The notes beneath the pieces are model-generated. The model ran no database searches. It was given only the letters and a program-made list of their open reading frames with translations, and was not told the DNA's origin. A stretch of DNA of 64,000 bases from Mytilus edulis (taxonomy: Eukaryota): the NCBI RefSeq assembly GCF_963676685.1, contig NC_092353.1, positions 35,154,001 to 35,218,000 of the forward strand, read 5' to 3'. The position numbers were made by a program, and so were the translations under genes. Within the stretch, counting starts at the first letter, position 1, and each line of letters opens with the position of its first letter. Shown here one piece after another: positions 4,012 to 38,155 of the stretch.

Positions 4012-4267
4012 AGGGGCCTCGGTGGGGTAAGTAGTTAGTACTGTAACTGTTTGCCGGTCAACACTGAGGTTGTGAGTTCGAACCCCGATCGTGCGGGTGA
4101 ACTCGACTCCAATCTTAATTGACTAGGATTGTCAGTTTTCCTATCGAATGTCAGTGTTTTTTCCAGAGCACTGCGGCTTCCTCCACCAATAAAAACTGGC
4201 TGCCACGAAATAGCCTAAATGTGGTGCTTAAAAGTGGCGTTAAAACATCAAAAATCAAAAAATCAAC
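4012..4267 (+). mobile_element. tRNA-derived SINE with V-domain-like core
   Basis: 5' GGGGCC head, B-box GAGTTCGAACC, central gcactgcggcttcctccacc resembling the V-SINE domain, (AAAATC)n-like tail, and a 13-bp TSD tcattgatgattt at 3999-4011 and 4268-4280. Confidence 0.85.
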
Positions 4268-4387
4268 TCATTGATGATTTTTTAATACATTGATAATAAG
4301 TATTCAGTGATTTGCATCATATATTTGCGAATTGGTAAGTTTCTCTTATATAAACAGTAGTCATTATTACACAATTCACAAAAAAAG

Positions 4388-4700
4388 TAAAATCACAAAA
4401 ATACCGAACTCCGAGGAAAATTCAAGACGGCCAATCCCTAATCAAATGGCAAAATCAAAAGCTTAAACACATCAAACGAATGGATAACAACTGTCATATT
4501 TCTGACTTGGTGCAGGCACTTTCTTATTTAGAAAATGGTGGATTGAACAAGATTTTATAGCTAGTTAAACCTCTCACTTGTATGACAGTTCAAATTCCAT
4601 TATATTGACAACGATGCGTGCATGTGAACAAAACAGACATTATAGGTAAAAATGTCAATAATAAAGCAGTCAACATTGTGCTGTAATCCTAATCACTAAA
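4388..4700 (+). repeat. Dispersed repeat family A (aaaatcacaaaaatac[c/t]gaactccgaggaaaattc...ctgacttggtacaggc...ttgacaacgatg)
   Basis: The same sequence recurs at ~4975-5135(-), 5362-5470, 16625-16835, 23180-23405, 29880-29970(-), 31935-32260, 35965-36120 and 58190-58290(-). Confidence 0.8.
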
Positions 4701-5720
4701 AATATACAAACATGTAACAAAGAAGCACGAAATGGCATATAAACCAATCATATTAGTAAAAATTAGACAAGAATGCACAAATTTACCATAGAACAATAAC
4801 ACAATGACGGGATGTATAAGTACAGAGCCACGTCATACATGTAACGAAGAAACTTAAAAAGGCATATAGACAAAGCACATATTAAAAATGAAAGAAGAGC
4901 AACAAACAACTTTTCGAAGTAACACCAAAAAGGCATATAGACAAAGCAGATGAGCAAAATGTGTGTATATATTTAGTTCAGTCCTGGCAGCATAACACAC
5001 AATTCTCGTATATGACAGTTGTTATTCATTCGTTTGATGTGTTTGATGTGTTTGAGCGTTTGATTTTTTACCATTTGTTGAGGGATTATCCATTTGAAAA
5101 TTTCCTCGAAGTTAGGTATTTCTGTCATTTTACTTTTTTCTATCAAATATTTAAGCAAAATCAATTGATATATTATTTGTTCCGTTTATACATGGTCTAT
5201 AAAATAGTTTCTGAACGATAAACAACGAAATCATATTTGGAGGACAATATACCGTCTTTTTATACGTCGTTTTCAACAATATGTAAGTGTCTTTTCATTA
5301 TCTTAAAATATAAATCGCTCCGAAATAGATGCATAAATTTAGCTAAATGTAAGCTATTACAGAGTAAAATCACAAAAATACTGAACTCAGAGGAAAATCA
5401 ATCCGGAAAGTCCATAATCACATGGCAAAATCAAATAACAAAACGCATAAAAAACGAATGGACAAGAACAGAGATGGCAGTTTCATGAACAGGCCTTACT
5501 TCTTAAATGTCAGAAATAAAGTAATAAAAGACAACCACTAACTTTGAGCGTAAACATTTGGGGGAGCTATACTGGGATCGCTTAAATCTCAACTTCTTCT
5601 CACTTCCTCTCCGCTCCACCCTCCTAAAAATTACCTTTTTGTTAAGAAAATATAGTTGTTTTACTACAAATAGCCATAAGAACCGTTTTGTTAATTATAA
5701 CGCCTCGTGCCTTGTATATA

Positions 5721-6040
5721 GTTATCAAATGTAGCAGAATTATAATTTAGTACGCCGTTGACGCGCGTTTCGTCTACATAAGACTCATCAATGACGCTCA
5801 GATCAAAATAAATGTGAAGCCAAACAAGTACAAAGTTGAAGAGCATTGAGGATCCAAAATTCGAAAAAGTTGTGCCAAATACGGCTAAGGTAATCTATTC
5901 CTGGGATAAGAAAATCCTTAGTTTTTCGAAAAATTCAAAGTTTTGTAACAGGAAATTTATAAAAATGACCATATAATTGATATTCATGTCAACACCGATG
6001 TGCTGACTACTGGCCTGGTGATACCCTCGGGATCGAAACC
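5721..6040 (-). mobile_element. Retrozyme-like repeat with degenerate hammerhead ribozyme (core ~5752-5799)
   Basis: The minus strand reads gagcgtca-UUGAUGA-GUCU-uaugu-AGAC-GAAA-CGCGCG-UC, with C3->U and a disturbed stem I. The body aligns with the copy at 13175-13477. Confidence 0.8.
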
Positions 6041-6734: not shown

Positions 6735-7901
6735 TTACATACTTGCATACAGAAAATATGCCACAAGAGTAATGACAATAATTAAATAGGAAGAAACTAA
6801 AAAAAACTTATCAAGCAAATAAGATACATATTTTCCATTATAGATCTGTTTTTCTTTTTTCTTACAATCAAAAAGAGTAACGTCCTGATTCCTTGTTTTC
6901 TTGTGAACGAAACAGTTCACGATCCTTCCAGGGAAATAGTCTTCCTGGTAGTACAGCTTGGTCGTTATAATGACAGCCACTACCGTTAATCCACTAATCA
7001 ACATGATAATAATCATAACAATCAACAGGAAACACATGGGATTAGAGGATGCTGGTATTGATGCTGAAACAAGCGTTAAAAATATGGCGTACGATAAAAG
7101 TATTGTCATTGATAATGATATGCGTTCTCCTGATTCTACCGGAAGTAAAAACACTAATGGATTAAGAAAGGACAGTAACATCGTTGGAAGGACAATCATT
7201 ATTATGTAATACATTGGTTTACGTTTTAATGATAGGCTCATATGAAACTTATAATAACCTTCTGGTTCTATTTGTGCATATGTTTTTCTAGTTACCACTT
7301 CCAAATTTGAGTCCTTTGTGTAAAAATCTAAATTAACTTCCTCAAAAAACGATATCAATTTGTAAAATGTAGCGCCTCCACCCCATGCAAGAAATTCTAA
7401 TAGGCATGGTTGGGTGTCAAAAGGAAATTTAGAAATATCAGTTTGACATTTTGCTTCTAAAATACTTCCTGGAGAATAATTAACAAACCCGCTGCTATTT
7501 ATATTTACTCTAAAAGCAGAATCAAATCCAACTGGTTCAAATTTTTTGGCATTGTTTTGTAGATAAAACCATGGTAACCATACATCTTTAGAATCCACAT
7601 CCAATGAATTTATATTTCCATATTCTACAGGATTCCATGATAATGATGTGTCTTTCCATACTATAGCTAATCCTCCTGTTAGAACTAGCGTTTCCTCGAC
7701 TTCTCTAAAAGAGTTGATTGATAATAAATAAAACGCCAGTGTAATTTCAAAAGGCTCTGATTGATTATTTAGAGGTGTGATATTATTCCTATAACTACTG
7801 AAAAGATCGTCATAAAGTTTTGTCACATTTTCAAAAGTTTGTCCTAAACCTGGCAAATGACATTGGAGAAATACCATGCAACAGTATATGAAACGATTCA
7901 T
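6735..7901 (-). CDS. Atypical nicotinic acetylcholine receptor-like Cys-loop subunit (non-alpha), copy 1
   Basis: 388-aa ORF with signal peptide, Cys-loop CQTDISKFPFDTQPC, M1-M2 LPVESGERISLSMTILLS and four TM segments. No vicinal CC in loop C. No introns in the CDS. Confidence 0.95.
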   Translation of the reverse strand: MNRFIYCCMVFLQCHLPGLGQTFENVTKLYDDLFSSYRNNITPLNNQSEPFEITLAFYLLSINSFREVEETLVLTGGLAIVWKDTSLSWNPVEYGNINSLDVDSKDVWLPWFYLQNNAKKFEPVGFDSAFRVNINSSGFVNYSPGSILEAKCQTDISKFPFDTQPCLLEFLAWGGGATFYKLISFFEEVNLDFYTKDSNLEVVTRKTYAQIEPEGYYKFHMSLSLKRKPMYYIIMIVLPTMLLSFLNPLVFLLPVESGERISLSMTILLSYAIFLTLVSASIPASSNPMCFLLIVMIIIMLISGLTVVAVIITTKLYYQEDYFPGRIVNCFVHKKTRNQDVTLFDCKKKEKQIYNGKYVSYLLDKFFLVSSYLIIVITLVAYFLYASM

Positions 7902-8967
7902 TTCTTAATAGTTCCACGTTTACTTGTTAAAAGAAGCAGAATGATATACACATACAAATTTCAAGTTTTAAATACGTTATAAAACGATATATTGTTGACG
8001 AATATCACGTCGTTTAATCTCTTGTTAAAATTTAATCACCTTGAGAAGTATATAAAGTAAATCGCTTTTTCATTTGCGTTAAGCTAGTTAAATTGGAAAT
8101 GACGTTTATACTCTGGAAGTAGTTCAAACTTTTAAATGGAACAGCATTATATTGTTAATTGAGTTTTATAATCACAATATTTAATAATCCGTATATAATA
8201 ATATTATTGTTGTAAATTTCATCAACAGTCGTCATTTATTGATGTATCGCCACTTGATTTACCCATAATGATACCTAGCAATATGAACTCTCAACACAAT
8301 TATGATGACGTGCGATTGCTGATTACTAGTAATGTAAAGTTGAAATATCAAATGCATATTGAGGACAAGAACATATTCAAATGAATTGAATCAGGACCCT
8401 CTTTTCCTTTCGATCATGGCAGTATCACTATATGTATTCTATGTTATTTTTTTAAAATATAAATTCGATAGCCTACTTGGTCGCTTAATCTATTCTTTTA
8501 TTTTATTGTGTGCACGAATTTCTAAACAAGTCTGTACTAAGTCAGGAATCTGATGTTGAGTAGTTCTCGTTGGTTGACGTAGTTCAGCAGTGTTGCTCGT
8601 TCTTTATATATATTAGCCCGTTAGTTTTCCTGTTTGAATGGTATTACACTAGTTATTTTGGGGGTCCTCTATAGCTTGCTGTTCAGTATGAGCCAAGGCT
8701 CCGTGTTGAAGATCTTACTTTGACCTCTAGTGGTTTACCTTTTACTTGGATGGAAGGTTGTCTCATTGGCAGTCATACCACATCTTCCTTTATATGTGTA
8801 AATACATATGTTGTTTAATTCCATTTCCATTTCATTTATAAGTATATCATCTCAGGAAATAGCAAAGAAAAAAGATAGTTTTTCTTTGTATGATCTATAG
8901 GCGAATAAATAGATCATGCATATCAGATCAAATTATCTTTCTAGTATAAATGTATGTCAATTAAAAA

Positions 8968-9280: not shown

Positions 9281-10949
9281 AGATATGTTAATCTTTTTAT
9301 TTTAGAAATCTCCAAAATAAGAATAAATCTAAAAGAATAAGACTGACGCTAAAAGAGAAATAACGTTACGTTATTCAATTTTCCTTACCTACCTAAACAA
9401 ATCTTAACATATTTTAAAGACGGTTAAAGACGGTTTGAATATGGTATCACATTGATTTTAATAACTTAAACACATGTACATCGGTTTACAAGTATGATGC
9501 AATTTTCTACCGTAATACCTACCTTCTTGTTAAAATATAGGCAACTAATCATATTTAAATTTAAAATAATAAGCACTTCGTTGTACAAATAACCCATTCT
9601 TATTTAAAGTCTCATGAAGTGTGCTCATTAGATCTTGTAAACTCAATACATATAACTATTATCAAATTGATTCTCATTAAAGAGTTAAACTTGTTGGTAA
9701 GTTTGTGTTGTACTCTTACGCTACTCTAGAGGTTATGGGAAATACTATAAAGAGTAACAAAGTACGGACCTATAAAGTAAACTTCAAATGAACTTGTCCT
9801 TAAAAACTGTTAAAGCAAGCACTCTGCTATAGCAACCAAAGAGACGACTCGAATACAACTGTCATTGTCCTCACTTTATAAGGAATTTCCAGAATATGTA
9901 TAAAGTAATATGTCTTTTTACCGTGCAAGACTCCAATGGGAAGACAAGGAAAGATAAAAAACTATCGTAGGTAAGATACTTAGTTTGAAGGTTATATGAT
10001 GCGGACAGCAACTTAAATCAGTGTATTCATTACTGCAAAACGAAACTTGCGTTATTATCCTGAATTTTAAGAGAATTAAGAGAAGATATTTTTTTTTATA
10101 CATTTTGTATATTCATAAAAGGCTTTAAAAATAAACAATTCCAGAATCAAGATTATTTGAAGCAGATGTGCTATCTGTACGCCTACAGTAAATTGCATCA
10201 TTAAACTAAGTATCTTATCGCCGAGAGTTTTTTTTTATCTATCTTGTCTGTCCAAGATAGTCTTGCACGGTCCGTTTCAAAAGGAACTTACTTTGTGACT
10301 AAATAACATAAATAAAATTATGAAAGGTTCTTCATATTGGTATATAATATTTTGAAACGTTTCCAAACAAATAAACGAAAGTATAGATATACATAAATGT
10401 CTTTAATAAACACTTATAAATACACAGATCTATTTAAACATTCATAAATGTTGTTATGATTTAAAATTGAATTTAATAACTATACGTAAAGATAAAATTT
10501 TGAACCTGTTGTTGGTTGACAATACATTAAAATGTGATATTAAAAGAATTGATTAACACACCTTTCGTGCTCTAGCTTCAATGAATGTTCTAGTTCTAAA
10601 CTATTAATATAATCTCTAACTTAGAGACAGCTAATGAATGCTCACCAACAGTAAAGTATATTTGTCTGAAATGTTGTTAAACCTGCTCGGAGAAAATGTA
10701 CGAACTCCTAGACTTTCAAAGGTCATAATTAATGTGTTTAAACATTTATGCAATACGATTGTTAAACCTTATATGTCTCTTACGGTATAAAACACTAAAA
10801 CAGATCGAATGCTTGCATCAACTTACACAAATAAAGATTTGATTAAAGCCTGAAATTGTTGGCATTTTTTTTCTTTATTCATGTCAGTGTTAAAAAAGCC
10901 AAATGGTGAACAAAATAAGTAAAATCACAAACAAAAATGAACTTCTGAA

Positions 10950-11260
10950 GTTCTTAATAATAAAACGTATGTAGTACCCAGCCAATCCCAAGAAACGTCG
11001 AACATCTTCGGGTGATGTAGGTGTTGGCCAAGTCAGGACTTTCACGGTCTTTTCTGGATCTACTCCCACTCCATCTGCTGAAACAATGTGTCCCAGGAAC
11101 TTTACCTTGCGTTGAAAGAACGAACATTTCTTGGGTGCCAACTTCAGGTTCGCCTTTCTGATGCGGTCCACTACCAGTTGCAAGTTGTTGGGATGTTCCT
11201 CATATGTCTTTCCAAAGATAATCACATCATCAATGAACACAATGCATATTCTTAGGTGGT
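10950..11260 (-). mobile_element. Ty3/gypsy LTR retrotransposon RT fragment
   Basis: FIDDVIIFG...LKLAPKKCSF...VKFLGHIVS...DPEK...WPTP...VRRFLGLAGYY are gypsy RT motifs 5-7 and thumb. Truncated on both sides. Confidence 0.9.
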
Positions 11261-11261
11261 A

Positions 11262-11512
11262 ATCAGGTACCAGGATTATAATTTAATACGCCGACGCGCG
11301 TTTCGTCTACATAAACCTCATCAGTGACGCTCAGATCAAAATAGTTATAAAACCAAAAAAATACAAAGTTGAAGAGCATTGAGGACCCAAAATAGTAAAA
11401 AGTTGTGCCAAATACTGTCAAATACGGTAATGCAAAGAAAATCTATAATTATGACTATATCTGTTCAATGGTAATAAGTGCTGACTACTGGTTTGGTGAT
11501 ACCCTGGGGGAA
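11262..11512 (-). mobile_element. Retrozyme-like repeat with degenerate hammerhead (core ~11288-11332)
   Basis: The minus strand reads gagcgtca-CUGAUGA-gguuuauguagac-GAAA-CGCGCGUC-ggcg; stem II is mutated. The body has an internal replacement. Confidence 0.75.
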
Positions 11513-13174
11513 TAAAAACCCCACTGATTTATTCCAACCAACTCACTACAAACTATGCAAACTGTTTCATAGATTATATTATGGGACTGTACATAAGGAT
11601 GCAATGCACTCAGATAAAGATTTGTTCATACGGGTTTGGCTGTTTTGTTTAGAACCTTTCGGCTCTCATATATACTATCAAACATTTTATTATTTTTATT
11701 GGATATGTTAAACTGAAACCAGCTTTTGTAAATGAGTTAAATGCAATTAAGTAGAAAAATTTAGTTTAAAATTATATCTTAAGAAATAATCACAAAAAAA
11801 CAATAGAACAACACTGGAATTTAATATTAAATATTCAGTAACAAGCGAATTTGCTTTCGAAATTTTACCCTGTCCTGTATTCGGTATTTGATTTATGAAA
11901 ATGTCTGTTCTATTTTTGTGATTGATGCATGCAAAAAAAGTCAACATTAAACGAACATTTAAAAGTAAAATAAAAAAAAATTGAAGAAGCATTCAAGTCA
12001 AAGTTTAATTTAAAATCTTTCAGAAGTCTTTACACAAAGAAGCCAAAGATAAAATACAAACAACGATACGGTAACAGCCAAGTTGCTATTTCCTGAACTA
12101 GAGATAAAAATGTTTTAGTTTGTTACCCCGATTTTGTTTTTTGTCCATGGATTTATGAGTTTGAACAGCGGTATACTACTGTTGCCTTTATTTATATACA
12201 ACAGTTACGGTTAATATAAAAACATTGAAGGTTCTATAGATTTGACCAAAAAAAAAAACCCAGTGATAAACGGTAATATAGCATTTGTTGATTACAATTA
12301 ATATAATCAGAACCACTAAAGCAATTCCTTGGATCAAATGTTCGGATGATCAATCTCAGATTATTACTTTTAAAAATTGACAAAATCATAATGAAATTCG
12401 ACTGTTATTTATTCAAATTTTTAGCATTGATCGTTCTACTCAATTATACTAAAAACTGTAATCAACATCGTGTATTTTGTTTCATTCTGTTGACTAATTG
12501 GACAATATATCAGTTGTGTCTAAAGAACTAACACAGCATTAATTGTTTGCTAACTCGATGTAATAAATCATATTACAAAATGTGACTAAGACATTGGTAT
12601 CGAGGAGGCAATCAAAAAGTAGGCGAATTAGGTAAAAAGCAACAACGTATAGAACAACTGGAACCCATTTCCTTCCAAAAACAACAAGAAAATATATCTG
12701 CCATTTTTAGCTCTAACGTATTTTATAGGCCTGCTTTCTTTGATGATTGTTAACTATAGACTAATTCCCGGTTTTTATTGACAATCAATTGATCAATCAC
12801 AGTCCCTGCTGTTATGATTGAGAATCATGTCTCAAAAATTATACAAGAAAATAACCCGTACGGGTATTTTGTCAAATGTTTTGGCTAACACTAACAGCAA
12901 TCTTGTGAGAATTTCTAGTAAACAATCCCAGTTAAATAGACATAGGAAGATGTGGTGTGAATATTTTTCATCAAATCTATGATTTATTCTAAATAAATCT
13001 AATTCATTATCATGATATGCCAAACATTACATTAATTAAGAAATTATACTGAAATTGAGTCAGATATAGATGTTCTTACATGGTTAAAGGTGTTTTCCTC
13101 AGCCACTTTCGGTTTTTGAATACACGTAAAGTTTTTTATTTGTTATGTTGAAAAAAAAACCCTGAAAAAAACAC

Positions 13175-13477
13175 CAGCCCAGTAGTCAGCACTTCGGTGT
13201 TGACATGAATATCAATTATGTGACGTGAACATTTTTATAAATTTCCTGTTTACAAAACTTTAATTTTTCCGAAAAACTAAGGATGTTCTTATCTCAGGAA
13301 TAGATTACCTTAGCCGTATTTGGCACAACTTTTTGGAATTTGGGATCCTCAATGCTCTTCAACTTCGTACTTGTTAGGCTTGATAAATATTTTGATATGA
13401 GCGTCACTGATGAGTCTTGGGTAGACGAAACGCGCGTCTGGCGTATTAAATTATAACCCTGGTGCCTTTGATAACTA
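13175..13477 (+). mobile_element. Retrozyme-like non-autonomous retroelement (~300 bp)
   Basis: Reverse complement of the 5721-6040 repeat; ends in an intact hammerhead motif. Confidence 0.85.
13391..13450 (+). ncRNA. Type I hammerhead ribozyme, intact core
   Basis: Stem I gcguca(13401-06)/uggcgu(13439-44), extended by uuugaua/uauuaaa across a bulge. CUGAUGA 13407-13; stem II GUCU/AGAC; GAAA 13427-30; minimal palindromic stem III ACGCGCGU; GUC cleavage triplet ending at 13438. Confidence 0.9.
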
Positions 13478-15067
13478 ATTATACATTAGTTAAATGATTC
13501 TCAGCAGAATGATTGTGTTTGACAAAATGTATTCAAATAAATCATAAGGTATAACAGTAAAATCCATTTGATTTAAATAGCTTGTATTATGGAACAAGCA
13601 AATCATCTTTTACAATATCTCTGGTATCTAATGCATGAAATTGTTTTTAAGAGATTAATGCGTTATGCTTAGTTTGACTAATTGCTTTGTAGAAAAAAAT
13701 ATGAGACGAGCATAATACGTTTCTATCTTTGTTTGCGTATTTTTTTGTTTCTGTTGTTCCGTTGTCTTCCTCTTATAGTTGATGTGTTTCTTTCGGTTTA
13801 AGTTTGTAACCCGGATATGTTTTTCCTCAATCGAGGTATGAATTTTAAACAGCGATATACTACAATTGCCTTAACTTAAGTGAAAGTCAAATATTTTATT
13901 TCAATTGTTTATTGTTTATAGCATCAACCGCTATTTCCCTAAATAGCAACAAAAAGATGTCAATATTCCCTTAGCCAACCTACTGAACCAGCTTGAAAAA
14001 TAATTTGAAAATTAGTTCTTTTCAATATTATTGAAAAATATAAATACTTATTAAAGATCAAACAGCCATAGTTGATTTAAGGATAATTAAGTTATTATAA
14101 TCAACTAATCAATTCTCTTCATCCAATTTACTCTTGATTAATTTAGGAAAATTATTTAAAATTACACAATCATATTGAAATTGAACAATATATGACATTG
14201 ATCTTCCTACTCAATTACTAGTATACTTAAGGAAGTTGCCTTCTCTTGTTTTTTTTTGAATTTTTGCCAGATATTTGGAGTAGTGGACATCCTTAAAGTC
14301 CTTAAAGCTTAATCTTAAACAATATTTTTTGACGGTTTATGACAGTTTAATTTTCGCTCCCATATTTTGTTTTTGATTTCATTTTTACCAGTACGTAATC
14401 AAAAAATATGTTCAGAATACATGAATGAAACAGGAACTTCCTAAATGAAAAAAAAACTCATGTATAATTAAGTTATCTTATCTAATGAAGATTGTCGGAT
14501 GTTAACAAAACTTGTCTTTTTTTCTTTTTTAGCCATGGCGTTGTCAGTTTATTTTAGATCTATGAGTTTGACTGTCCATCAGGAATCGTTCACCCCTCTT
14601 CAAGGATGGATACACCCTTAAATGACGACTATTGAAACACAGACCAAAACCATCTCTTCATCTCTCCTTTTTCACTTAAAAAGCAGTATTCTAATTAGAA
14701 AGGATAATTAGTTTAACGTACCCAATCACATTAGTAAAATTGCTTATGGCACCACATAATCACTGAATCTTTATATTGACATCTATTATTGGAAATCAAT
14801 AAACAATTATTAAAATGTTAGAACATTTTAAACTTCTTTTGGGGTATATAACTGTCTTAAAATGTTTATTAAAAAGTAGTTTTCTTTCAAATATATTATA
14901 CATTTTACGGTATTTAAATTTTAACAAGCGATCAAACGACGTGATATTCGTAAAATTATATGTTTTAAAACATAGTTGAAACGCTTAATTTGTGTCTGTG
15001 TGTATCATTCTGTGCAATTCAACTTATATTTACCAGTAAATGTGGAACTCTTGGAAGAAAATAAGAA

Positions 15068-16234
15068 ATGAATCGTTTCATTTTCTGTGTCTTGATATTA
15101 CTCCCGTTTCCTTTGCCGAGTTTTGGACAAACTTTAGTTAATGTGACAAAACTATATGATGATCTTTTCAGTAGTTATAGGAAAAATATTATACCTGTGG
15201 ACAATCATTCAGAACCATTAGAAATTTCACTGGCTTTCTATTTACTATCTATCAATTCTTTTAGAGAGATCGAGGAAACGCTCGTTCTAACAGGAGGATT
15301 ATCAGTGGTATGGAAAGACACATCATTATCATGGAATCCTGAAGATTATGGAAATACATATTTATTGGAAGTGGATTCAACTGATATTTGGATACCGTGG
15401 ATCTATCTGATAAATAATGCAAAGAAATTTGAACCTATCGGTTTTGATTCTGCTTTTAGAGTATTTTTAAATAGCAGCGGATTTGTTCAGTATTCCCCGG
15501 GAAGTATTTTAGAAGCAAAATGCAAAACTGATATTTCAAAATTTCCTCTTGATACCCAACCATGCCTCTTAGAATTTATCATTTGGAATGGAGATGCTGG
15601 TACTTACAAATTAATATCGTCGTTTGATGAAGTAAATCTAGATTACTACACAAAAAACTCAAATTGGGAAGTGGTAACTGGAGACACCTATGCACAACTA
15701 CACCCAAGCTATTATTTTAGGTTTTTTATGAGTTTATCATTAAAACGCGAACCAGTGTACTATATAGTAATGATTGTTCTACCGACTGTTTTGTTGTGTT
15801 TGCTCAATCCACTAGTGTTTTTACTTCCGGTAGAATCAGGAGAGCGTATATCCTTAGCAATGACAGTACTTTTGTCGTACGCCATATTTTTAACGCTTGT
15901 TTCAGCATCAATCCCAGCATCCTCTAATCCAATGTGTTTCCTGTTGATTGTTATGATAATTATCATGTTGATGAGTGGATTAACGGTAGTGGCTGTCATT
16001 ATAACAACCAAGCTATACTACGAAGAAGAATATTTCCCTGGAAGGATTATGAAATTTTTCCTGAACAGAAAGACAAAGAATCGGGACGTTACTCCTATGG
16101 GCTGTGAGAAAAAAGAGAAACAACTCTATAATGGAAAAAATGCATCTAATTTTCTCGACAAATTGTTTTTATTTTCCTCATATGCAATTATTGTAATAAT
16201 TCTTGTGGCTTTCTTTCTGTATGTAAATACGTGA
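15068..16234 (+). CDS. Atypical nAChR-like Cys-loop subunit (non-alpha), copy 2
   Basis: 388-aa ORF with Cys-loop CKTDISKFPLDTQPC, GER at the M2 entry and 4 TM segments. No vicinal Cys; intronless CDS. Confidence 0.95.
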   Translation: MNRFIFCVLILLPFPLPSFGQTLVNVTKLYDDLFSSYRKNIIPVDNHSEPLEISLAFYLLSINSFREIEETLVLTGGLSVVWKDTSLSWNPEDYGNTYLLEVDSTDIWIPWIYLINNAKKFEPIGFDSAFRVFLNSSGFVQYSPGSILEAKCKTDISKFPLDTQPCLLEFIIWNGDAGTYKLISSFDEVNLDYYTKNSNWEVVTGDTYAQLHPSYYFRFFMSLSLKREPVYYIVMIVLPTVLLCLLNPLVFLLPVESGERISLAMTVLLSYAIFLTLVSASIPASSNPMCFLLIVMIIIMLMSGLTVVAVIITTKLYYEEEYFPGRIMKFFLNRKTKNRDVTPMGCEKKEKQLYNGKNASNFLDKLFLFSSYAIIVIILVAFFLYVNT

Positions 16235-16249
16235 ACACTTATTAAGACT

Positions 16250-16530
16250 TAATCCAATGTGTTTCTTGTTGATTGGTATGATAACTATCATGTTGATCAG
16301 TGGATTTACGGTAGTGGCTGTCATTATAACAACCAAGTTATACTACAAGGACGACTATTTTCCTGGAAGTATTATGAAATTTTTCCTGTACAGAAAAACA
16401 AGGAATCAGGTCGTTACTCCTATGGATTGTGAGAAAAAAGAAAAACATCTCTTCATGTATCTAATTTTCTCGACAAATTGTTATTATTGTAATAATTATT
16501 GTGACGCTCATTCTATATGTAAATACATAA
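16250..16530 (+). pseudogene. 3' fragment (M3 to C-terminus) of an nAChR-like gene, frameshifted
   Basis: Begins ~15 nt after the copy-2 stop with taatccaatgtgtttc (NPMCF). It has two deletions relative to intact copies (near 16450 and 16480). The homologous stop is at 16528-16530. Confidence 0.9.
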
Positions 16531-17272
16531 ACACTTTTAAAGACTCGATAAATAAACATTTAAAAAATCATCTGCTAATATAGACGGTATATATATAAAG
16601 AAAACAGTAATATTATAAAAAAACATAACTCCGAGTTGAAATTCCTAAAGGAAAGGTTCTCATCAAATCAAAAGCTCAAACACATCAAACAAATCGATAA
16701 CAACTGCCATATTTCTGACTTGGTACAGGCATTTTCCTATGAAGAAAATGGTTGTTTAAACCTGGGTTTATAGCAAGCTAGATCTCTCACTTGTAGGACA
16801 GTCACATCAAATTCCATTATATTGACAACGATGTTAATAGTCACTGACGACTGTATGTTGACCTGGAGATGTCTTTTGGTTCCATAACCATCATCCTTTC
16901 ACTTCTAAAATAGACCCAAAAAAAAAGTGATTTGAAGCTTCTACGTAAAGAAAACGAGACATGAAATTCAAACTGTATAGTGAGACATTTAACTGCCATT
17001 AAAATAATAAAATGAATTGATCCTTTCTGATATCTTTAATCAATTTTATAGTACCAAAAAACAAATAATTGTCGTCGCAATCAATGTAAAAAGTACATAA
17101 AAAACGTTGACTTAAAGAAAAAAAGAAGAAAAGGTGAACTTGACATATTTACTAAATGGAATTTCAAAATATAAAATTTTATGTACTGGTAATTATAAAT
17201 GAGGGACATTTGTTCCGGGACTTATGTTTAGATTTTTTTGGGTCCTGGACCCAACGTAATAAATACTTAAAT

Positions 17273-17649: not shown

Positions 17650-17683
17650 TTAAATGATTATTGGTTGGAGTTGTTGATAAAAA

Positions 17684-19425
17684 AGGCAACAGTAGTATAC
17701 CGCTGTTCAAAACTCATAAATCTATGGACAAAAAACAAATTGGGGTAACAAACTAAAACTGAGGGAAACGCATTAAATTTTAGAGGAGAACAACGACACA
17801 ACATTAAAATGTAACACACACAGCAACAGAATAAGCATTAGACAAAATCCGATGAGAATAACCAATATAACATCAAAACCAAATACATGAATTTGGGATA
17901 GAAAAGTACCGTGACACGTCTTAAATTAAAGTAATTTGAATTCACACTCAAAAATAGGAGAAAACAAACGACACAACGGAAACACAACGTAAAAATGTTA
18001 CACACACAGAAACGAACTATGATATAAAAATGGCCATTTTCCTGACTTGGTACAGGACATTTTTAAAGAAAAAAAAATGGTGGGTTGAAACTATAGAACA
18101 ATTTATGCTATTGCAAACAGTAAATTTTATCAAATGAATATAAAAGATTTACATGATAAAACTGACGTCTTAATTAATTACAGAAAACAAACCCCGAATA
18201 CATAATACATTGAAGACCAACACAGAAAATAGACACACCCGACATACGAGGTGGTGAAATGGCACAATATTACTCCATGCAGACATGTGAATTTCTGAAA
18301 CAGCACAAATATGACGTCATATTTGAAAAATTATGTCTAAAAAATAAGATAGAAATAGGATTGATTTAAGATTATAATAGAACTAAATACTGATATTACA
18401 TTTAAACACAATGCACATTGCAACACTAATCAATAGCAATATATATATATTATATATGTCTGGTTTGTTTTGAATCTAACTTCAAACATAAAAATCGTAC
18501 AGATTACGTTGAACAAAATCAAAACTAGTAAATGAAAGAGGTGATTAATTTTCTTTACCATAACACATGAATTTAATAGAAAAGACGTCAACCAATTTGA
18601 CAAAAATGGATCAATTGATGAAAATTACAAATATAACATCAAACTAAATACATGAATTTGGGATAGATAAGTACCGTAACACGTCTTATAGTAATGCGAA
18701 TTCACACTCAGCAAAACAGTCACAATCGGGAATAAGTCACGTTCGGTAATTAAAAGATTAGACGACGTAATGACAAACCACAATCTACCATGTGGTAAAA
18801 ATGTCCTTAGCTAGTTTGGTCAAAGACACATCATATGGATCAATTAATTCGTGATGGTGTCCATAAAATTTTAATCTGTCCTTCTCATAACTTTGTTGAA
18901 GCAGTTTCTGTGTAAGGAGCACACTTCTGTATTTGAAGTCCGTATAGAGTGAACATGCACGAGAATAACGTATCAATTGTGATATGTAAACACCATACGA
19001 AGGGGCAGAGGGTATGTTACTGCTGAGAAATGGGAAATTGATAATTGGGAAGTTGAAATCGTCCCGTTTATCATAGATTTTCGTGTGAAGTCGTCTATCT
19101 GCGTCAATATTGAGGAAAAGATCAAGGTATGAAGTAGTCCTTCTATTATCAGTAGAATCCTTAATTTCAAGTTCGCTGGGATATATGAGATATAAGTATT
19201 GGCTGAAATATGGGTTATTCAATGATAGAACATTATCAATATATCGGAAACTAAAATTAAAGAATTTTGCAAGGTGCTTTTTCTTTTTGTCTTTTAGAAG
19301 GTTCTGAATGAATTCTGCTTCATACGAGTACAAAAACAAATCGGCCAGTAGGGGTGCACAATTAGTACCCATTGGAATACCGACTCTCTGTTGAAATATA
19401 AATCCTCCAAACTCAACAAATATAC
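17684..19425 (-). mobile_element. 5'-truncated Penelope-like retroelement (Naiad-type) with RT C-terminal half at 18785-19425
   Basis: FQQRVGIPMGTNCAPLLADLFL...FRYIDN...SYLDL...YDKRDDFNFPIINFPFLSSNIP...ISQLIRYSRAC. The ORF stops after the thumb with no C-terminal GIY-YIG. Catalytic YIDD is mutated to YIDN. The terminal segment recurs at ~12115-12195 and 13730-13875. Confidence 0.85.
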
Positions 19426-21928
19426 CTGATAAACAATATCACATTGTGGTGAATTAGACTTATCACCGAATTTATTCTTGAATGATCAACACAATGGGAG
19501 TAATATCTGCTACATCTTCCGAAGCACTCGATATCACCCCCGTTTTTTTAGTTTTAGTCAATTAGTTTTCTTTCTTGTGCTTAATGAATTGCCTTTTTGT
19601 CATTTTTTAACATTGCATTATCAATTTGGTTTTGATTTTTGAGTTTGGATCTTTCTCCTCTGTTTTACCTGATCAACAAAGAAAAATATTGTACTTAAAT
19701 ATGTTGCAAACTAAAGTTACATTCATCTTGTACCTTGGATGCATATAAAGTAATTTTATTTCATATTTATTATAAGGGATTTTTATAGAATATTGTAGAC
19801 TTTATCTACATTTAAGCCAAAAATTACTGTTAATCTTGTATCTAGTTATTAGTCTTTCTACATGTTCATGTACATATAGAAATTGCGTTACTGTAAACTG
19901 TCTTAGCTTTGATTAGCCTATTGAGAGGTGATTAAGTATCGTATTTTCAAATTTGCTTAATATGCAGTTATATAGAGAAAAATACAAGTTCGCGACCATT
20001 TATATTCACGTTGTTTTACTGCTCGCGAAAGTCGCGAAAGTAAATCCTTTTGGAACATTAGTTTTTTTTACAGTATATAGAATAACAAATGTTATATCCG
20101 GAGAAGACTTTAAAGGAGCTATATCAACAAAATACAAAATAAATAATTATGATCCATTAATGAAAGGTACTTGCAAGTGAACAAATCGACCTAGTTGAAT
20201 CCATATTCATGTAAACGTCACTTTAACCCCTTAGTAAGAGATGGATAACACATGAATCGTGCATGACTAGTTAGTAAAAGGAAATTAATGTCAACATTGG
20301 AAGTAAAAACTTCTGGTAAGATATTTGCTTCACAAAATTCATTGTTATACAGGTAATAACGAGGATTTTTTTTATATATCTTAAACCTATAATATGAAAT
20401 TAAACAGACCTAGAAAAATCAAATTGCACGAGTTCATTACCTATTTACATCTATTATTATGTTTACATCACTTATATAATCATCGGAAGTTTTCGAAGGT
20501 CAACTCGAAAGTAAATTAGATGGCGTCTAGACTTAAATACACACAAAACGATGAGACATATTATCGAGCACATGCCTTGTACCTTGCATATTTTATACTT
20601 TTTATTTTTTGAATAAATGTTTTAATATGTTATAATGCAATATGAGAATTCAACAGCTAGTGCTCTTTAATAATATATATTGAATGCAAGAATACATGAC
20701 CTATCTATTGTACAACTTATGTATGAAATTGAGAATGGAAATGGGAAATGTGTCAAAGAGAAAACAACCCGCATTTAGTAAAGAAGGCCACCAATGGGTC
20801 TTGATCAATTAAAGAGTATATCGAATGACAACTTGGACTGACGATTTTTTTTAAAGAACATAGAGTTCCATGTCAAAACAGAAATGCAATATCATGTCTG
20901 AAAGAAGAAAACAAATAAAATCTACAAACCACAACAGCGCAACATATGACTGAGGACATTCGTAGTTTTCCTTTGTTTGATATGCAAAAATATTGTATCA
21001 ATATAATCAACATTACTTATGTGACAGAAAAAAATTGAGTAATTAACAACATATGATATAGAATTTTATCTTATTCTTACATGGTCAAATTAAAAAAAAA
21101 TATATTTTCCCCATTTTTTGAATTGTTTATTGATGTCATGACTTTCAACATTGTAAAACTTCTAACTTATAAATTAACTTTATTTCCATTGTACTTTCCT
21201 TGATTTTCAATTTACAAGGATTATTTAGCAATTATGATGTTTTGGTGATTTCATGGGTAACAAATGATCTAATGAATAAACACTTGACAATATGTTTCCA
21301 ATGCTACAATTAAAAAAAAATATAAAGACATTTAAAGAGAGAACATAACATAAATCATGAATCAACTGGAACCAACATGAATTTGATAAAGACAGATACT
21401 TAAAAGAATTGGATTTAGCAACCAAGAACGACAATAACACCCGTATAGGGGTTACACCAATACATGACGACTATTGAAACATTGTACACAAAAGTTGAGT
21501 TAATCTCTCGTTTTCCATTAAAAAAGTAACATTCCTATAGAAATGCTAATTAACCTTTCGTGCCCAATCACACTGGTAGAATTGCAATTGGAATCCAATA
21601 ATAAATGAATCTTTATATGAGCACGTATTAATGAAAGCCAATCATCAATTATTACAATGCGAAAACATTTGAAGCTTCTTTCAGTATATAAACGTCATTA
21701 CGTATATAATTGTCTTAAGATATTTAAAAGGCAATGTTCCTTCAAACGAGATATGCATTTTACGGTATTTAAACTTTGAAAAGAGATTAAACAGTGTTAT
21801 ATACGTCAACAATATTATTTGTGAACCATATTTAAACGCTTAATTCATATCTGTGTGTATCAGTCTGTGTAATGCAACTTTTATTTACCATTAAATGTGT
21901 AACTGCTTGAACTTGACGAACATAAGAA

Positions 21929-23095
21929 ATGGCTCGTTTCATATTCTGCTTCATGGTATTACTCCAGTTTCTTTTGCCAAGTTTGGAACAAACCTTAGAA
22001 AATGTGACAAAACTATATGATAATCTTTTCAGTAGTTACAGGAGAAATATCAAACCTGTAAACAATCATTCAGAACCAATAGAAATATCACTGGCTTTCT
22101 ATTTATTATCTATCAATTCTTTTAGAGAGATCGAGGAAACACTCGTTCTAACAGGAGGATTATCAGTGGTATGGACAGACACATCGTTATCATGGAATCC
22201 TGAAGATTATGGAAATACATATTCATTGGAAGTGGATTCTACAGATGTATGGTTACCGTGGGTTTATCTGATAAATAATGCAAAAGAGTTTGAACCTGTT
22301 GGTTTTGATTCTGCTTTTAGAGTATTTATAAATAGCAGCGGATTAGTTCAGTATTCTCCGGGAAGTATTTTAGAAGCAAAATGTCAAACTGATATTTCAA
22401 AATTTCCTCTTGATACCCAACCATGCAAATTGGAATTTATTATTTGGAATGGACATGCTGGTACTTACAAAATAATATCGTCATTTGATGAAGTAAATCT
22501 AGATTACTACACAAAAAACTCAAATTGGGAAGTGGTAAATGGAGACACTTATGCTCAACTAGATCCAAGAGGTTATTATAGGTTTTTTATGAGTCTATCA
22601 TTAAAACGCGAACCAGTGTACTATATAGTAATGATTGTTCTACCGACTGTTCTGTTGTGTTTGCTCAATCCACTAGTGTTTTTACTTCCGGTAGAATCAG
22701 GAGAGCGTATATCCTTAGCGATGACAGTACTTTTATCGTACGCCATATTTTTAACGCTTGTTTCAGCATCAATCCCAGCATCCTCTAATCCAATGTGTTT
22801 CCTGTTGATTGTTATGATAATTATCATGTTGATGAGTGGATTAACGGTAGTGGCTGTCATTATAACAACCAAGCTATACTACGAAGAAGAATATTTCCCT
22901 GGAAGGATTATGAAATTTTTCCTGAACAGGAAGACAAAGAATCAGGACGTTACTCCTATGGGCTGTGAGAAAAAAGAGAAACAACTCTATAATGGAAAAA
23001 ATGCATCTAATTTTCTCGACAAGTTGTTTTTATTTTCCTCATATGCAATTATTGTAATAATTCTTGTGGCTTTCTTTCTGTATGTAAATACGTAA
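21929..23095 (+). CDS. Atypical nAChR-like Cys-loop subunit (non-alpha), copy 3
   Basis: 388-aa ORF with Cys-loop CQTDISKFPLDTQPC. The TM half is nearly identical to copy 2. Confidence 0.95.
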   Translation: MARFIFCFMVLLQFLLPSLEQTLENVTKLYDNLFSSYRRNIKPVNNHSEPIEISLAFYLLSINSFREIEETLVLTGGLSVVWTDTSLSWNPEDYGNTYSLEVDSTDVWLPWVYLINNAKEFEPVGFDSAFRVFINSSGLVQYSPGSILEAKCQTDISKFPLDTQPCKLEFIIWNGHAGTYKIISSFDEVNLDYYTKNSNWEVVNGDTYAQLDPRGYYRFFMSLSLKREPVYYIVMIVLPTVLLCLLNPLVFLLPVESGERISLAMTVLLSYAIFLTLVSASIPASSNPMCFLLIVMIIIMLMSGLTVVAVIITTKLYYEEEYFPGRIMKFFLNRKTKNQDVTPMGCEKKEKQLYNGKNASNFLDKLFLFSSYAIIVIILVAFFLYVNT

Positions 23096-24892
23096 ACACT
23101 TATCAAGACTCAATAAATTAACTTTTGAAAAAATAACCTGCTAACATAGACAAAATATATATAAAGAAAAAGTAATATAACAAAACTACTGAACTCCGAG
23201 GAAAATTAACAAAGGAAAGGTCCTAATGAAATGGCAAAATAAAACGCTTAAACACATCAAACAAATAGATAACAACTGCCATATTGCTGATGTGGTACAG
23301 GCATTTTCCTATGTAGAAAATGCTGGTTTGAACCTGGTTTTATAGCTAGCTAAACCTCTCATTTGAATTACAGTCACATCAAATTCCATTATATTGACAA
23401 CGATGTTAATAGTCACTGAAGACTGTATGTTGACCTGGAGATGTCTTTTGATTTCATACCCATCATCCTTTCACTTCTGGAATAGACCCCAAAAAAGTTA
23501 TATGAAGCTTCTACATAAAGAAAACGAGACATGAAATTCAAACTGTATGGTAAGACATTTAACTACCATGCAAATAATAAAATGAATTGATCTTTCCTAA
23601 TATCTTTAATCAATATTTAAGTTATTTACATTTACATGTAATTTGTTTTTTAGTATCATAGTACCCTAAAATAAATAATTTCCTTCGCAATCAATGTAAA
23701 AAGTAAATAAAAACATTGCCTAAACGAAAACGAAAGAAAATAAGAACTTGATGTTTTTACTAAAAGAAATTTTTAAATATTGAATTTTATTTACTCGCTA
23801 TTATAAATGGAGGGCATTTGTTTTTGGAATTTACGCTACGCTTTTGTTTTGTCCTGTACCCAATTTAATAAAAACTTATATGATTAATGGCTGGAGTCGA
23901 TGATATACAAGATAACTTTGTTGTGCTGTTGTTTTGTCTATGTAACGCCTACCTGGTTTTTATGTATACGTCTGCTTTTTAAAACTAATTGTAATAATTG
24001 TTGTGTGACATTTTACTTTAATAAAATGTATAAAGTTTTCTTATATCTTTTGATTTATACATATATATGTTTGTAGCCACACAATGTTAGATCTTTAAAC
24101 TTGCGTTAGAAATTTTTTGTTCAGCGAATTTATATATTTAATAACACACTTTTTTCATTCAACGTTTGAAAGTAATGTATTTTTGTTTTATTTGAGATAC
24201 TAGTATTTGTTTGTTTATACTCTTTTAATCGCAATGTTGATGTTTTTAATTAAAAAAATGTAACAAAAATACAGAACTCCAAGGTAAATCAAAATGGTGT
24301 TGTCAATACAAGTTACTATATTCAAACTTTATAAACCAACGAAATGAATGAAAAATGGCCGTTATATTTGGTAAAGGTATTTCCAAATTGGTTGGTCCAA
24401 CCTGGTTTTAAAGATATTTAATCCGCCATAAAGTATATGGTTAATATCCTGTTTATCTAGTCAGTATTGTGTGTATAAATTGGTTTGTACCTTCTAAAAT
24501 ATATAAATCTTATGAATCACGCAAAATATGAGCGAGACAAAAATCACTTACGGTTTAGAGACGGAATCACCGCCCCAAAAAAATTGCGATTTAGTTCGAA
24601 ATTTCGAAACCGTCTCACGACGCATTCAAGCAAAGTGGATATTATTAATGAGGATAGAGCTTGAGATCTAAAAGAGCTGGTTTCACCCGGCAAATATTAA
24701 TGATTTTAGAATTCAATCAGTGGTTGTCTTCAGTAAGTATTTTTCCTGTCATTAAAGAAGTTTCGTGTAATGATAAGACTGCCGTCTCTGTAAAATTCTG
24801 CTGACAAAAAAAAAATATAATTATGTTTTAGGGTCGTTTGGTTGCCATCACATTGACACATATTTATTTACCCATTTCGTGTGTAAATTGGT

Positions 24893-24985
24893 ATCAAAGG
24901 TACCAGGATAATTATTTCATACGACAGACGCGCGTTTTGTCTTTTAATAAGACTCATCAGTGACGCTAAGATCAAAATAGTTAAA
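24893..24985 (-). mobile_element. Truncated retrozyme-like repeat, hammerhead with G12->A
   Basis: The minus strand reads cguca-CUGAUGA-GUCUU...AAGAC-AAAA-CGCGCGUC; GAAA has become AAAA. Confidence 0.75.
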
Positions 24986-25664
24986 TTGCCATACAGATTA
25001 ATCAATATTACCAATTTTGCTTGAATAGTATTAATCACACAAATATGCGTACCATAAAATGTCAAGTGTGTAGTGTCTATAATGAATAGTCTACCCTAAT
25101 AGATGTAGGACTGTTTGACGACCAATCTTAAATTAAAAAAAAAGGGATCCGACAAAATCCCCAAAAGATAACAAAACTAGAAAGTGCGTTGAAACTTGGC
25201 TTTTACATTTCAAAGACGCAAACATTCAAAAATTAAACTGAATAAACTATTATAGTTATAAAAATAGTGTTATTTCTTAAATGCGGAAGTGGAATAATTA
25301 ATCCTTTTTTACCACTTACAGTAAATCGAAGTGTTTTGACACAGTTGATTGGTGTAATGATGAAATTTCCCGAAATTGCGCGGATGATTGTGACTTTAGT
25401 TCATTCATACATGAACATCTATGGCTCATGCTATTCGCTTGAAAATTGTTTATAACTAAAGTGGATACGAATGATGCATAACATAATGGTATTTACAGTT
25501 TGCACTGCAATTTGAAATGCAGAACCTTTTCAAAGACCTCAAGGGAGCCATTTTGCTTAGTTCTTTGATTTCAAATTCAGATATGTTGATTATTTCCTGT
25601 CTCCCTTTTACCTACACATCAGTCAGTCAGTACTTACATTCCACAGTTAGCTTGTCATAAAGGA

Positions 25665-31315: not shown

Positions 31316-31493
31316 AACTCATCATAGATACAAAGATTAATTTTGTATTTACGCCAGAAGCGCGTTTCGTGTTCAAAAGACTCATCAGTGACGATCGAAT
31401 GCAAAAAAAATAAAAAGGCCAAATAAAAGTACGAAGTTGAAGAGCATTGTGGACCTAAATTCCTAAAATTTTACAGCTAAGGTAATCTATTCC
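31316..31493 (-). mobile_element. Retrozyme-like repeat (variant subfamily), degenerate hammerhead ~31351-31393
   Basis: The minus strand reads cguca-CUGAUGA-gucuuuugaacac-GAAA-cgcgcuUC-uggcg. Confidence 0.7.
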
Positions 31494-34400: not shown

Positions 34401-34735
34401 ATGTATTAATATATTGATGTAATTTCATTGTCATATAAATGGAATTTCCTGTGTTTAGAAGAAAACATTAAAGGACCGCAATAATTTTTGTATTTGTATG
34501 AGCAGGTGATAATGTAAACTTAAACTAAACTGAGTTGAATTAGACACAAAAGAGTCAACTTTACTTCAAATGCTGAAACTTATATTGTTTCTGTGAGTTT
34601 AAATATCACGTCTTTTCGCAATAAATATAACGTAATTTGAATTTACTGAGAGGCAAACCAGGATATACATTTGGTGAGCAACTGTGGGGGATTTCCAAGT
34701 AAACGTATGTTACTGCTTGCAAAAGTCACCGAAAT

Positions 34736-35902: not shown

Positions 35903-37577
35903 ACACCTGTAAAGACTAGATAAATCAAAAATCATCTGCCAATATAGACGGTATATAAAAAAACGTGGCAAAATCAAAAGCACAAACACAGCAAACAAAT
36001 GGATAACAAATGTCATATTCCTGACTTGGTACAGGCATTTTCTTGTAGATTGAACCTGGTTTTATAGAACCTCTCACTTGTATGACAGTCGCATCAAATT
36101 CCATTACATTGACAACGATGTTAATAGCCACTATAAACTATATGTTGACCTGCAGATGTCTTTTGGTTTAATATCTATCATCCTTTCACCTCTAACATAT
36201 ACCCAAAAAGTTATTTAAAAAATGTTTCATTAAAAAAATCTAGACATGAAGTTAGAGCTGTATGGTAAGACATTTGACTGCTATGCAAATATTATATGAA
36301 ATGATCCCTCCTGACAACTTGAAACAATATTTGTGTTATATACATTTGCATCTAATTGGTTGTAAATATGATAATACCACAAACAAAATAATTTGCTTTG
36401 AAATCAAAGTATAGAACAAGTAAAATATTTCAAAAATAAAAATGAAAAACAAATTAGAATTATAATATTATCGAATGGAATCTAAAATATTTTAATGGTA
36501 TTAACTTCTAATTATGAATGAAGTGCATTTTTTCTGGGATTTATGTTTAGGGTATATTTTTGTCCTGCTCCGAATGTTATTATAATACATGATTATTAGC
36601 CGAAGTCGTTGATATTCAAGATAGCATCGTGGTGCCGTTTGTTGTCTTTGTAACGCCACACTAGTTTTAAGTATTATTTTTTTCTGCAAAGTGAAGATTA
36701 TATAAGTATGTAGTAACATTTGTAGTTTGGCAATTTTATTTACAGAAATGAATTCATGTACTTTTTCGTAAATGTATAACAAAGTTTGGTTTCTCTTCAC
36801 ATAACCTTTGTATTGAAACTGAAAGTCATGTTGGTACTAGATATTGTAAAGATATCGTATTTTTTGTGATTAAAGAGTAACAGGAGATGACTTTCATTTC
36901 ATCCTACAATGTAGCAGATATACTGATTTGCGTAATGTTTTTATTAAAAAATATTACTGGTGTAGGCCATCAACTTTTAAGTCAACAGTTTATTGTAAAG
37001 ATATATTGTAATCATAAATTTTCTGACGTCACCTATTGTTATTTATGTACATTGTTAATATTGCTTGTAATAAGTCATATGTGTACATCGTCTTTAAATA
37101 CACGGATGAGCGGCAAGGCTCAAAATTGATAAAAAATATGAATTTGAAGGAATCTGTCTATCTTTTGTTATTATTGTTGTGCGACATCTGACTTGAATAA
37201 AGTGTAAAGACTATTCCCTAATTATCTTTAGGCCTTTTTAATATACAGATTTTAATCTTCAAAATTGTGTAATATTTTTATATATGTGCTAACATGCCGT
37301 TTTTATACTAGTATTCAAAGTTTTAAATGTAATATCGTGTCTTTTAGTTCAGTATTTGGCTTTTAAAAAAACGACATTTTGTTTATACTTACATAATATA
37401 TATATAACAAACAAACAAAAAACGAACTCCAACAAGTCCTATGAAAATTCAAGAAGGGGAATTGCGTACAAGTTAACAAATTCAAACTCTACAAACCAAT
37501 GGAATGAATGAAAAAGTAATTGCCGCATTCCTAGCAGTGTACAAATATTTTATGACAGTAAAATGATGGGTTCATTA

Positions 37578-38155
37578 GTTATCAAAGGTACCAGGATTAT
37601 AATTTAATACACCAGAAGCGCGTATCGTCTACATACGACTAATCAGTGACGTTCAGATCAAAGTATGTATTATTAGTTACACAGTGTGCAATTGTCCTAA
37701 TACGAGAATTTATCGGGTCAATAAAATTCATATCGGGTGAGGCGAAGCCAAACCCGATATGAATTTTATTGACCCGATAAATTCCGTATTAGGACAATTG
37801 AACACTGTGTAACGAATTTATCCTGATTTTGTTATATTGCATATTATTATATTTAAATTCAATGTAAGGACAATATCAACCAATTATATTTTAGATATTT
37901 AATCTAAAACTGTGAAAAAATAAAATATTAGGACTATGAAGCAACTCATTTTTTTATTAGGTCAATGGTATAAGGGAGATAATCCCAATTGACGTAATAA
38001 ATAAGGGAGATAATTCCTATTGACGTAATAAAAAATTGTACTGAAATTTATTAGGACAATATCAGCCAATCAAATTGCGAGAAATTACTCTAAATCAGGA
38101 TAAAAAGCAAAACAAGTACAGAGTTGAAAAGCATTCAGGACCCAAAATTCCAAAA
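37578..38155 (-). mobile_element. Retrozyme-like repeat (degenerate hammerhead) split by a nested hairpin element
   Basis: 37578-37665 and 38103-38155 are colinear with the repeat consensus. The intervening ~430 bp are unrelated. Confidence 0.7.
37672..38103. mobile_element. Non-autonomous DNA element with long terminal hairpin
   Basis: Near-perfect ~65-bp-arm hairpin at 37674-37817 around gaggcgaagcc. A second inverted pair is ttatcctgattt (~37818) / aaatcaggataa (~38092). Confidence 0.7.

Follow-up and report, generated by a model that had tools for sequence, protein, structure and literature searches.

The window, the whole 64,000-nt stretch of Mytilus edulis DNA analysed here, contains four single-ORF Cys-loop receptor genes, at 6735-7904 (minus strand), about 15065-16234, 21926-23095 and 34703-35902. 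The second of these, receptor copy 2 (15068..16234, plus strand), encodes a Cys-loop ligand-gated channel with PF02931 and PF02932 domains. About 1.6 kb upstream of the start of its reading frame at 15068, on the same strand, lies a type I hammerhead ribozyme (13401..13444), an arrangement that an earlier note on this DNA had described correctly. The ribozyme is embedded in a single, 5'-truncated copy of a non-LTR retrozyme (13172..13484, plus strand). Downstream of the receptor, a 5'-truncated Naiad Penelope-like element occupies 17676..19438 on the minus strand. It consists of the C-terminal part of a reverse transcriptase (RT; 18788-19438) and pieces of a 3' end, with pLTR matches at 17676-18205. 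A 3'-end fragment of a second Naiad family (14512..14600, plus strand; 86.5% over 89 nt) sits between ribozyme and receptor, and is one of many isolated remnants of the 3' ends of both Naiad families (12112-12195, 13752-13872, 14512-14600, 28341-28537 and 46637-46874). Elsewhere, tandem repeats of 26 bp and about 147 bp are found at 43997-44158 and 44560-45353, and repeats of 30 bp and 27 bp lie in a GC-richer zone (47%) at 62125-63983 that is possibly a repetitive coding exon.

The hammerhead motif is confirmed as genuine. It matches the full length of the Rfam model RF00163 (Hammerhead_1) at 13401-13444 with 32.6 bits (E 5.1e-6), the check that had been proposed for it, and its stems covary between subfamilies. 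The match is a near miss, as scanning the window at the gathering score of 34 returned no matches. Intact array units elsewhere in the genome reach only 33.0, likewise below 34, so the sub-gathering score is a property of the family as a whole. Read along the plus strand, the motif consists of the 5' strand of stem I (13401-13406, pairing with 13439-13444), the core CUGAUGA (13407-13413), a 4-bp stem II (13414-13417/13423-13426) closed by the loop UGGGU, the core GAAA (13427-13430), the stem III palindrome ACGCGCGU (13430-13437; 2 bp plus a palindromic GCGC loop) and C17 at 13438. The predicted cut falls at 13438/13439. The conserved core and fold of a type I hammerhead are present (CUGANGA, GAAA, UH and three helices with helix I open), and the claim of an intact core at this position is upheld by both the sequence and the Rfam score. 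Loop II differs from the UAUGU/UUUGU of the retrozyme family.

Across four subfamilies, 95% of the cells in stems I-III are paired and 5 of 13 pairs have changed on both sides, in an alignment that misplaces stem II in two subfamily D rows. Most rows of the subfamily alignment retain the stem III palindrome, as ACGCGCGU, AUGCGCAU or AAGCGCUU. It had been taken for the minimal stem III of Penelope-associated hammerheads, a reading we do not retain. Minimal Penelope hammerheads do resemble the mussel motif in their type I topology, palindromic stem III region and option of acting as dimers (Cervera and de la Peña 2014, PMC4209133, in the text available). However, they lack helix III and have a helix II of 7-8 bp, whereas in the motif at 13401-13444 helix II is 4 bp long and helix III consists of 2 bp and a tetraloop, which is the canonical metazoan form. 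The combination that marks the minimal type (no helix III, long helix II, residence in the pLTR of a coding element) is not found here. The broader affinity with retrozymes and Penelope elements proposed at the same time is borne out below.

The bulged, extended stem I described in the earlier note survives in part: in the constrained fold it forms at 15 and 20°C and is lost at 37°C, and the 3' strand of the extension is not conserved across subfamilies. The loop1-loop2 contact expected from it is not supported, as mussel hammerheads are described as lacking most of the contact nucleotides (PMC7229834, available text). The folding energies take no account of magnesium or tertiary contacts. The 71-nt hammerhead region folds no better than its shuffles (z -0.35). 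Relative to the minimum free energy, the active fold costs 5.4 kcal/mol in the 13172-13484 copy and 5.8 kcal/mol in an array unit, so the truncated copy folds no less well than other family members. Pairing into a double hammerhead is energetically feasible (-27.7 kcal/mol, compared with -9.6 for two monomers, counting core pairs only), and to that extent the suggestion of dimer cutting stands. Against it, a cloned mussel repeat self-cleaves during transcription at about 0.1/min (PMC7229834), and cleavage as monomers is reported for most type I hammerheads of invertebrates (PMC7761336, a review by the same authors; both as far as their available text goes). A loose hammerhead pattern occurs 21 times in the whole window against a shuffle mean of 12.5, and 17 of 100 shuffles score equally high.

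The host copy is 313 bp long and matches a subfamily A array unit at 288/313 positions (92%). Counted from the cut site, it comprises unit positions 94-354 followed by 1-46, in a family whose unit length is 354-355 bp and whose GC content is 38%. Alignment to the unit shows that its first 14 nucleotides (13172..13185) are the 3' arm of a Naiad-type hairpin, of which the 5' ~48 nt are absent. Its last segment, after the cut (13439..13484), stops at the family's fixed 3' insertion boundary, the putative RT start. No target-site duplication over 5 bp flanks the copy; such duplications are an optional trait of this retrozyme (PMC7229834, available text). It contains no ORF of at least 120 aa, and we found no RT frame adjoining it. 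The copy is thus a clipped member of a common, already described mussel non-LTR retrozyme, and it is likely dead because most of the hairpin is missing.

Searching the 1.37-Gb genome with this family yielded 2728 candidates, of which 40 were scored. These had 92-95% identity and several were spaced 354-355 bp apart. The arrays carry one hammerhead per 354-355-bp unit and are 99% identical internally. Exact hammerhead cores number 14,680 genome-wide against 0 for a reversed control, that is, one per 93 kb or 0.69 expected per 64 kb; the window holds 1. The family has the traits of metazoan non-LTR retrozymes (tandem units of 150-450 bp with one hammerhead each, non-coding, GC under 50%, no LTR), and 13172-13484 by itself is a partial monomer. 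It is the non-LTR retrozyme known from Mytilus galloprovincialis, for which the available text of PMC7229834 describes type I hammerheads in non-coding, low-GC tandem units of 350-390 bp, thousands of copies, strong expression and RNA that is abundant as circles. Unlike that published retrozyme, our locus is a lone copy of less than unit length. The same account gives about 5000 hammerheads in two families, compared with 14,680 exact A/B cores in the M. edulis assembly plus subfamilies C (L121, L122, L125, L127, L130, L133) and D (L123, L126, L128, L129). These are additional 350-bp retrozymes with different hammerheads, and in subfamily D an additional A follows the CUGAUGA core. By eye, the published 375-nt M. 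galloprovincialis unit (PMC4918200, Additional file 11) agrees with subfamily B in its hammerhead, its hairpin and the letters that follow the cut.

Seven further family fragments lie in the window, most of them on the opposite strand and with damaged cores; like the 313-bp element itself, they had escaped the earlier note. The largest (5713..6039, minus strand) is 91% identical over 328 nt and has a core reading UUGAUGA and a disrupted stem I. Four more on the minus strand are a fragment with a damaged stem II (11265..11511), which lies 3.4 kb upstream of receptor copy 1 in its sense, two that end at the fixed boundary (24881..24995, with the core GAAA damaged, and 37576..37670, with a damaged core) and a damaged subfamily B fragment (31350..31493). 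The remainder are scraps at 3781-3958 (plus strand) and 38101-38156 (minus strand). An RVT_1 fragment with the look of an LTR retrotransposon (10890-11282, minus strand) abuts the damaged copy at 11265.

Family RNA is abundant. In four RNA runs from 2 studies, sampled at 6-18% of each run, 2152-5821 reads per run fell on the stretch analysed, mostly on the retrozyme copy and one other repeat. At position 13376, however, the letter typical of the family is found in 1063/1090, 1130/1138, 1807/1814 and 322/330 reads, which leaves at most a few percent for the 13172-13484 copy; the family RNA seen in all four runs originates from other copies. Three of the four runs show a strand bias fitting the ribozyme sense, which is absent from the random-primed run and from the neighbouring repeat. 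Reads pass from 13481 through 48 letters that the copy lacks and back to 13172, and these 48 letters show up as unaligned read ends at both 13172 and 13481. Such end-to-start reads fit circles or multimers of complete copies. Read ends did not pile up at the cut site in any of the four runs, whose libraries are fragmented and in which circles would hide a pile-up.

How the copies arise can be read from their ends. Among the best 30 loci, 7 overlap other arrays; once these are set aside, the 3' end lies 39-46 nt beyond the cut in 21 of 23, arrays included. We also sampled by position, a design meant to avoid score bias, taking 60 stretches over listed exact cores consecutively along contig C1, as far as about 7.19 Mb; this sample requires an exact core, represents one chromosome arm and contains a few segmental duplicates (L076/L077, L053/L054). 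The 3' end lay at unit position 29-48 in 56/63 insertions and elsewhere in 7/63, with subfamily B ends reading slightly short against the subfamily A reference. The 5' ends were spread from 7 to 319, with at most 9 of the 63 in any 20-nt window. One exact core in unrelated flanks was found in 54 of the 63. A fixed 3' end combined with scattered 5' ends is a hallmark of target-primed reverse transcription. Because the copies span the cut site, their template would have been a circle or an uncut multimer, not a linear monomer. A tail-to-tail inverted pair occurs once among the 23 loci (L028). At the right junctions of L028 and L086, inverted family sequence directly follows the copy, a Penelope-type insertion pattern.

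Which enzyme might make these copies is not evident from the retrozymes, for which a 2020 review mentions no conserved motif indicating a helper (PMC7761336, available text). The RT fragment at 18788-19438 led us to full-length candidates. It is 89.6% identical over 222 aa to a 1007-aa Naiad ORF, and the genome search that started from it scored 150 among 49,507 candidates. Naiad family 1 (L106) has this 1007-aa ORF, with an N-terminal GIY-YIG domain (PF01541 at 138-226, E 1.4e-4, 22.5 against a cut-off of 22.6), CxC and DKA motifs, and pLTRs of about 816 bp. Naiad family 2 (L120) has a unit of 3370 bp and a 1000-aa ORF with CxC and DKA motifs that is 63% identical to the family 1 protein over residues 2-1004; a Pfam search of this ORF for GIY-YIG gave no match. 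Judged by their sequence features, both full-length families are Naiads as defined in the available part of PMC8557442. They show pLTR or partial tandem structure. Family 1 holds only a decayed hammerhead core, and Rfam has no match in sense on L106. The retrozyme resembles the Naiads of Craig et al. 2021 (PMC8557442) in its 5' truncation, partial tandems, fixed 3' end and AT-rich junctions. Unlike the retrozyme, Naiads are autonomous and, according to the available text, without canonical hammerheads.

The two kinds of element share an RNA structure. In the retrozyme, a hairpin of about 63 nt lies directly beyond the fixed insertion boundary, about 45 nt after the cut. The Naiad body likewise opens with a hairpin directly after its fixed end, in 7/7 junctions inspected for family 1 and in L120. 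The stretches following the respective fixed ends align with a score of 50, compared with a maximum of 25 in 5000 shuffles. Between Naiad family 2 and subfamilies A, C and D, the only common sequence is a hairpin stretch of 61-74 nt at 84-87% identity, and the retrozyme units A and D themselves match only across the 94-nt hairpin region. In an alignment of 10 rows, 99.5% of the cells in the three-helix hairpin are paired, against 30-47% in slid controls, and 7/19 pairs have changed on both sides; the set is small, its structure was drawn from the same sequences, and most double changes come from two Naiad rows. A similar segment lies about 500 nt inside the family 1 pLTR, and we rejected a common 3'-terminal sequence of Naiad and retrozyme on that ground. 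A pseudoknotted or HDV-like hairpin was also rejected by eye, as the additional pairing breaks in Naiad family 2 and Rfam places no family there.

A pattern made from the hairpin stretch had 8066 matches in the genome and 0 in the control. The 14 matches that we examined brought up subfamilies C and D and the second Naiad family. The motif also stands at the start of deposited Naiad consensuses. In the available part of the PMC8557442 supplement, an 8-letter word from the hairpin occurs at ten places, nine of them in the opening lines of a named consensus (three from corals, three from oysters, Mphi and two Pfla) and one unnamed, and Naiad_Mgal and Naiad_Mcor open with a variant. Neither the hairpin nor a retrozyme client is described in the available text of that paper. 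A metagenome scan with the hairpin pattern, which proved too loose, gave 120 loci, of which 2 had GC under 45% and 0 had a hammerhead core.

The ribozyme and the retrozyme family are already known, and the locus is an ordinary one. A general link between retrozymes and Penelope elements was hypothesised in 2020 and is supported for Xenopus by a preprint of July 2026 (Li, Clavereau and Pollet, bioRxiv 10.64898/2026.07.22.740005), which proposes that animal retrozymes use Penelope machinery. There, 24/57 Xenopus families match known elements, and 21/22 of these are Penelope-like, with matches at pLTRs. In its available text the preprint includes no mollusc, mentions Naiad only in coral and does not link it to retrozymes; it names no common structure or start point, and places non-vertebrate links outside its scope. 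The newer point concerns the boundary: family copies stop directly short of an RNA hairpin with which Naiad retrotransposons also begin, and this likely identifies the copying enzyme. Neither a fixed insertion end nor a helper signal features in the available account of the mussel retrozyme (PMC7229834), and we found no paper stating the link between Naiads and the hairpin in the open-licence PMC and bioRxiv literature, with supplements partly covered. At the level of the family, the Naiad lead is well-supported.

We therefore read the ribozyme, with considerable confidence, as part of a 5'-truncated, likely dead mussel retrozyme copy that was likely pasted in by a Naiad Penelope-like RT. We propose that transcription in the ribozyme sense, seen in the reads, starts the cycle from complete tandem copies elsewhere, and that hammerheads would cut out monomers that are ligated into circles, as published for the family. 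A Naiad RT likely binds the irregular hairpin of about 60 nt that lies some 45 nt past the cut and also opens the Naiads; common sequence and covariation are what we observe here, and the binding itself is inferred. The RT would then use nicked AT-rich DNA as its primer, begin cDNA synthesis immediately 5' of the hairpin, cross the cut and ligation junction, and break off at random, in some cases after going round several times. The end pattern and the near-identical arrays are what we observe of this step, and the chemistry is suggested by analogy with an anole element. In that element, the Anolis Poseidon PAc, the available text describes RT starting internally in an RNA stem-loop on AT-rich nicked DNA and genomic ends that coincide with RT start sites (Frangieh et al. 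2024, PMC11167929). PAc belongs to another clade, is autonomous and has a minimal, protein-assisted hammerhead, and the likeness drawn here is one of mechanism. The 13172-13484 copy would have halted after 313 nt, inside the 3' arm of the hairpin and about 45 nt before a full round. With one cut site and an incomplete hairpin, it would give rise to no circle and would not be copied again.

That a Naiad RT starts beside the hairpin on circular or multimeric RNA is likely from the sequence patterns. We also think it probable that mussel retrozyme circles are clients of the hammerhead-less Naiad, with the ~60-nt hairpin, conserved at Naiad starts from corals to bivalves, serving as the landing and start signal of the RT. 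The family pattern bears on a stated question, namely which enzyme copies animal retrozyme circles and what it recognises. The lead supplies a pair of intact ORFs as candidates, a defined hairpin for which compensatory variants occur in nature, and a start position narrowed to a few bases. If true, the hairpin would be the first cis-signal for Naiad elements, which are dominant in many invertebrate genomes. A retrozyme would then amount to a small circle that combines a Naiad-type hairpin with an independent hammerhead, and a telomerase-related RT could turn any RNA circle bearing the hairpin into tandem DNA copies.

The hairpin could instead be a promoter or a relic of an origin from a Naiad end, with another Penelope clade (Neptune or Poseidon) or some other RT copying the retrozyme. 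Our helper search covered Naiads, and a second helper may exist beside them. Xenopus retrozymes resemble the pLTRs of annotated Penelope-like elements (10.64898/2026.07.22.740005, available text), and a decayed retrozyme-like segment does lie inside the Naiad family 1 pLTR. This segment is 72-75% identical over about 220-240 nt, has a mutated hammerhead core, ends near the retrozyme's fixed boundary, and is present in 14/14 stretches examined (L106:6549-6764 and like places in L032-L045 and L107-L119); it is either a passenger that inserted long ago or the sequence from which the retrozyme arose. Against this alternative, the hairpin directly follows the fixed end of insertions in retrozymes and Naiads alike, and it is kept with compensatory changes while the remaining unit diverges. 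In the anole element, moreover, a protein-binding motif has been proposed in the same region as the stem-loop where RT starts (PMC11167929, available text). We regard this alternative as unlikely and favour the hairpin as a signal used by a Naiad RT.

The earlier note had proposed that the ribozyme could cut upstream-initiated or read-through transcripts of receptor copy 2. Such co-option would suit an intact core in the same sense 1.6 kb upstream of the gene, a placement with a chance of about 6% given one core, calculated post hoc (4 genes x 2 kb / 64 kb x 1/2). Receptor copy 1 likewise has a damaged copy in sense 3.4 kb upstream, and contigs from two runs that carry different organism labels (X15, X18) span the right junction of the 13172-13484 copy. 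Among the DNA contigs listed, none skips the whole element, and those at the left junction reach only 25-28 letters in. On the other side, one exact core is close to what the genome-wide density predicts for a window of this size. Similarity upstream of receptor copy 2 ends at -460 relative to copy 3 and at -171 relative to copy 1, and no ribozyme occupies the matching place upstream of the three paralogues. Read depth is zero in the flanking bins 12993-13123 and 13517-13647 in 4/4 RNA runs, and also from 14696 to 16136, although silence of the receptor in these runs is weak evidence. Finally, the copy is 8% diverged, as in a neutrally ageing insertion. The proposal thus finds no support in a mobile copy that is absent from the paralogues and has read-free flanks, and we consider co-option very improbable; receptor copy 2 is likely a bystander and the ribozyme's upstream place likely chance. 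Least credible of all is that the repeat spreads as a DNA-level satellite, by local tandem expansion from a Penelope end and unequal crossover, with this copy a fragment: arrays exist and the route is discussed in the 2026 preprint (10.64898/2026.07.22.740005, available text), but it is largely refuted by single-core insertions in unrelated flanks with fixed 3' and scattered 5' ends, and by arrays that end at the same boundary.

The receptor genes have features of their own. They encode a short cytoplasmic loop and, by eye, lack vicinal cysteines in loop C. The end of receptor copy 2 is partly duplicated at 16250-16567. The set as a whole agrees with PMC6896357, going by its title, which speaks of receptors having expanded in lophotrochozoans.
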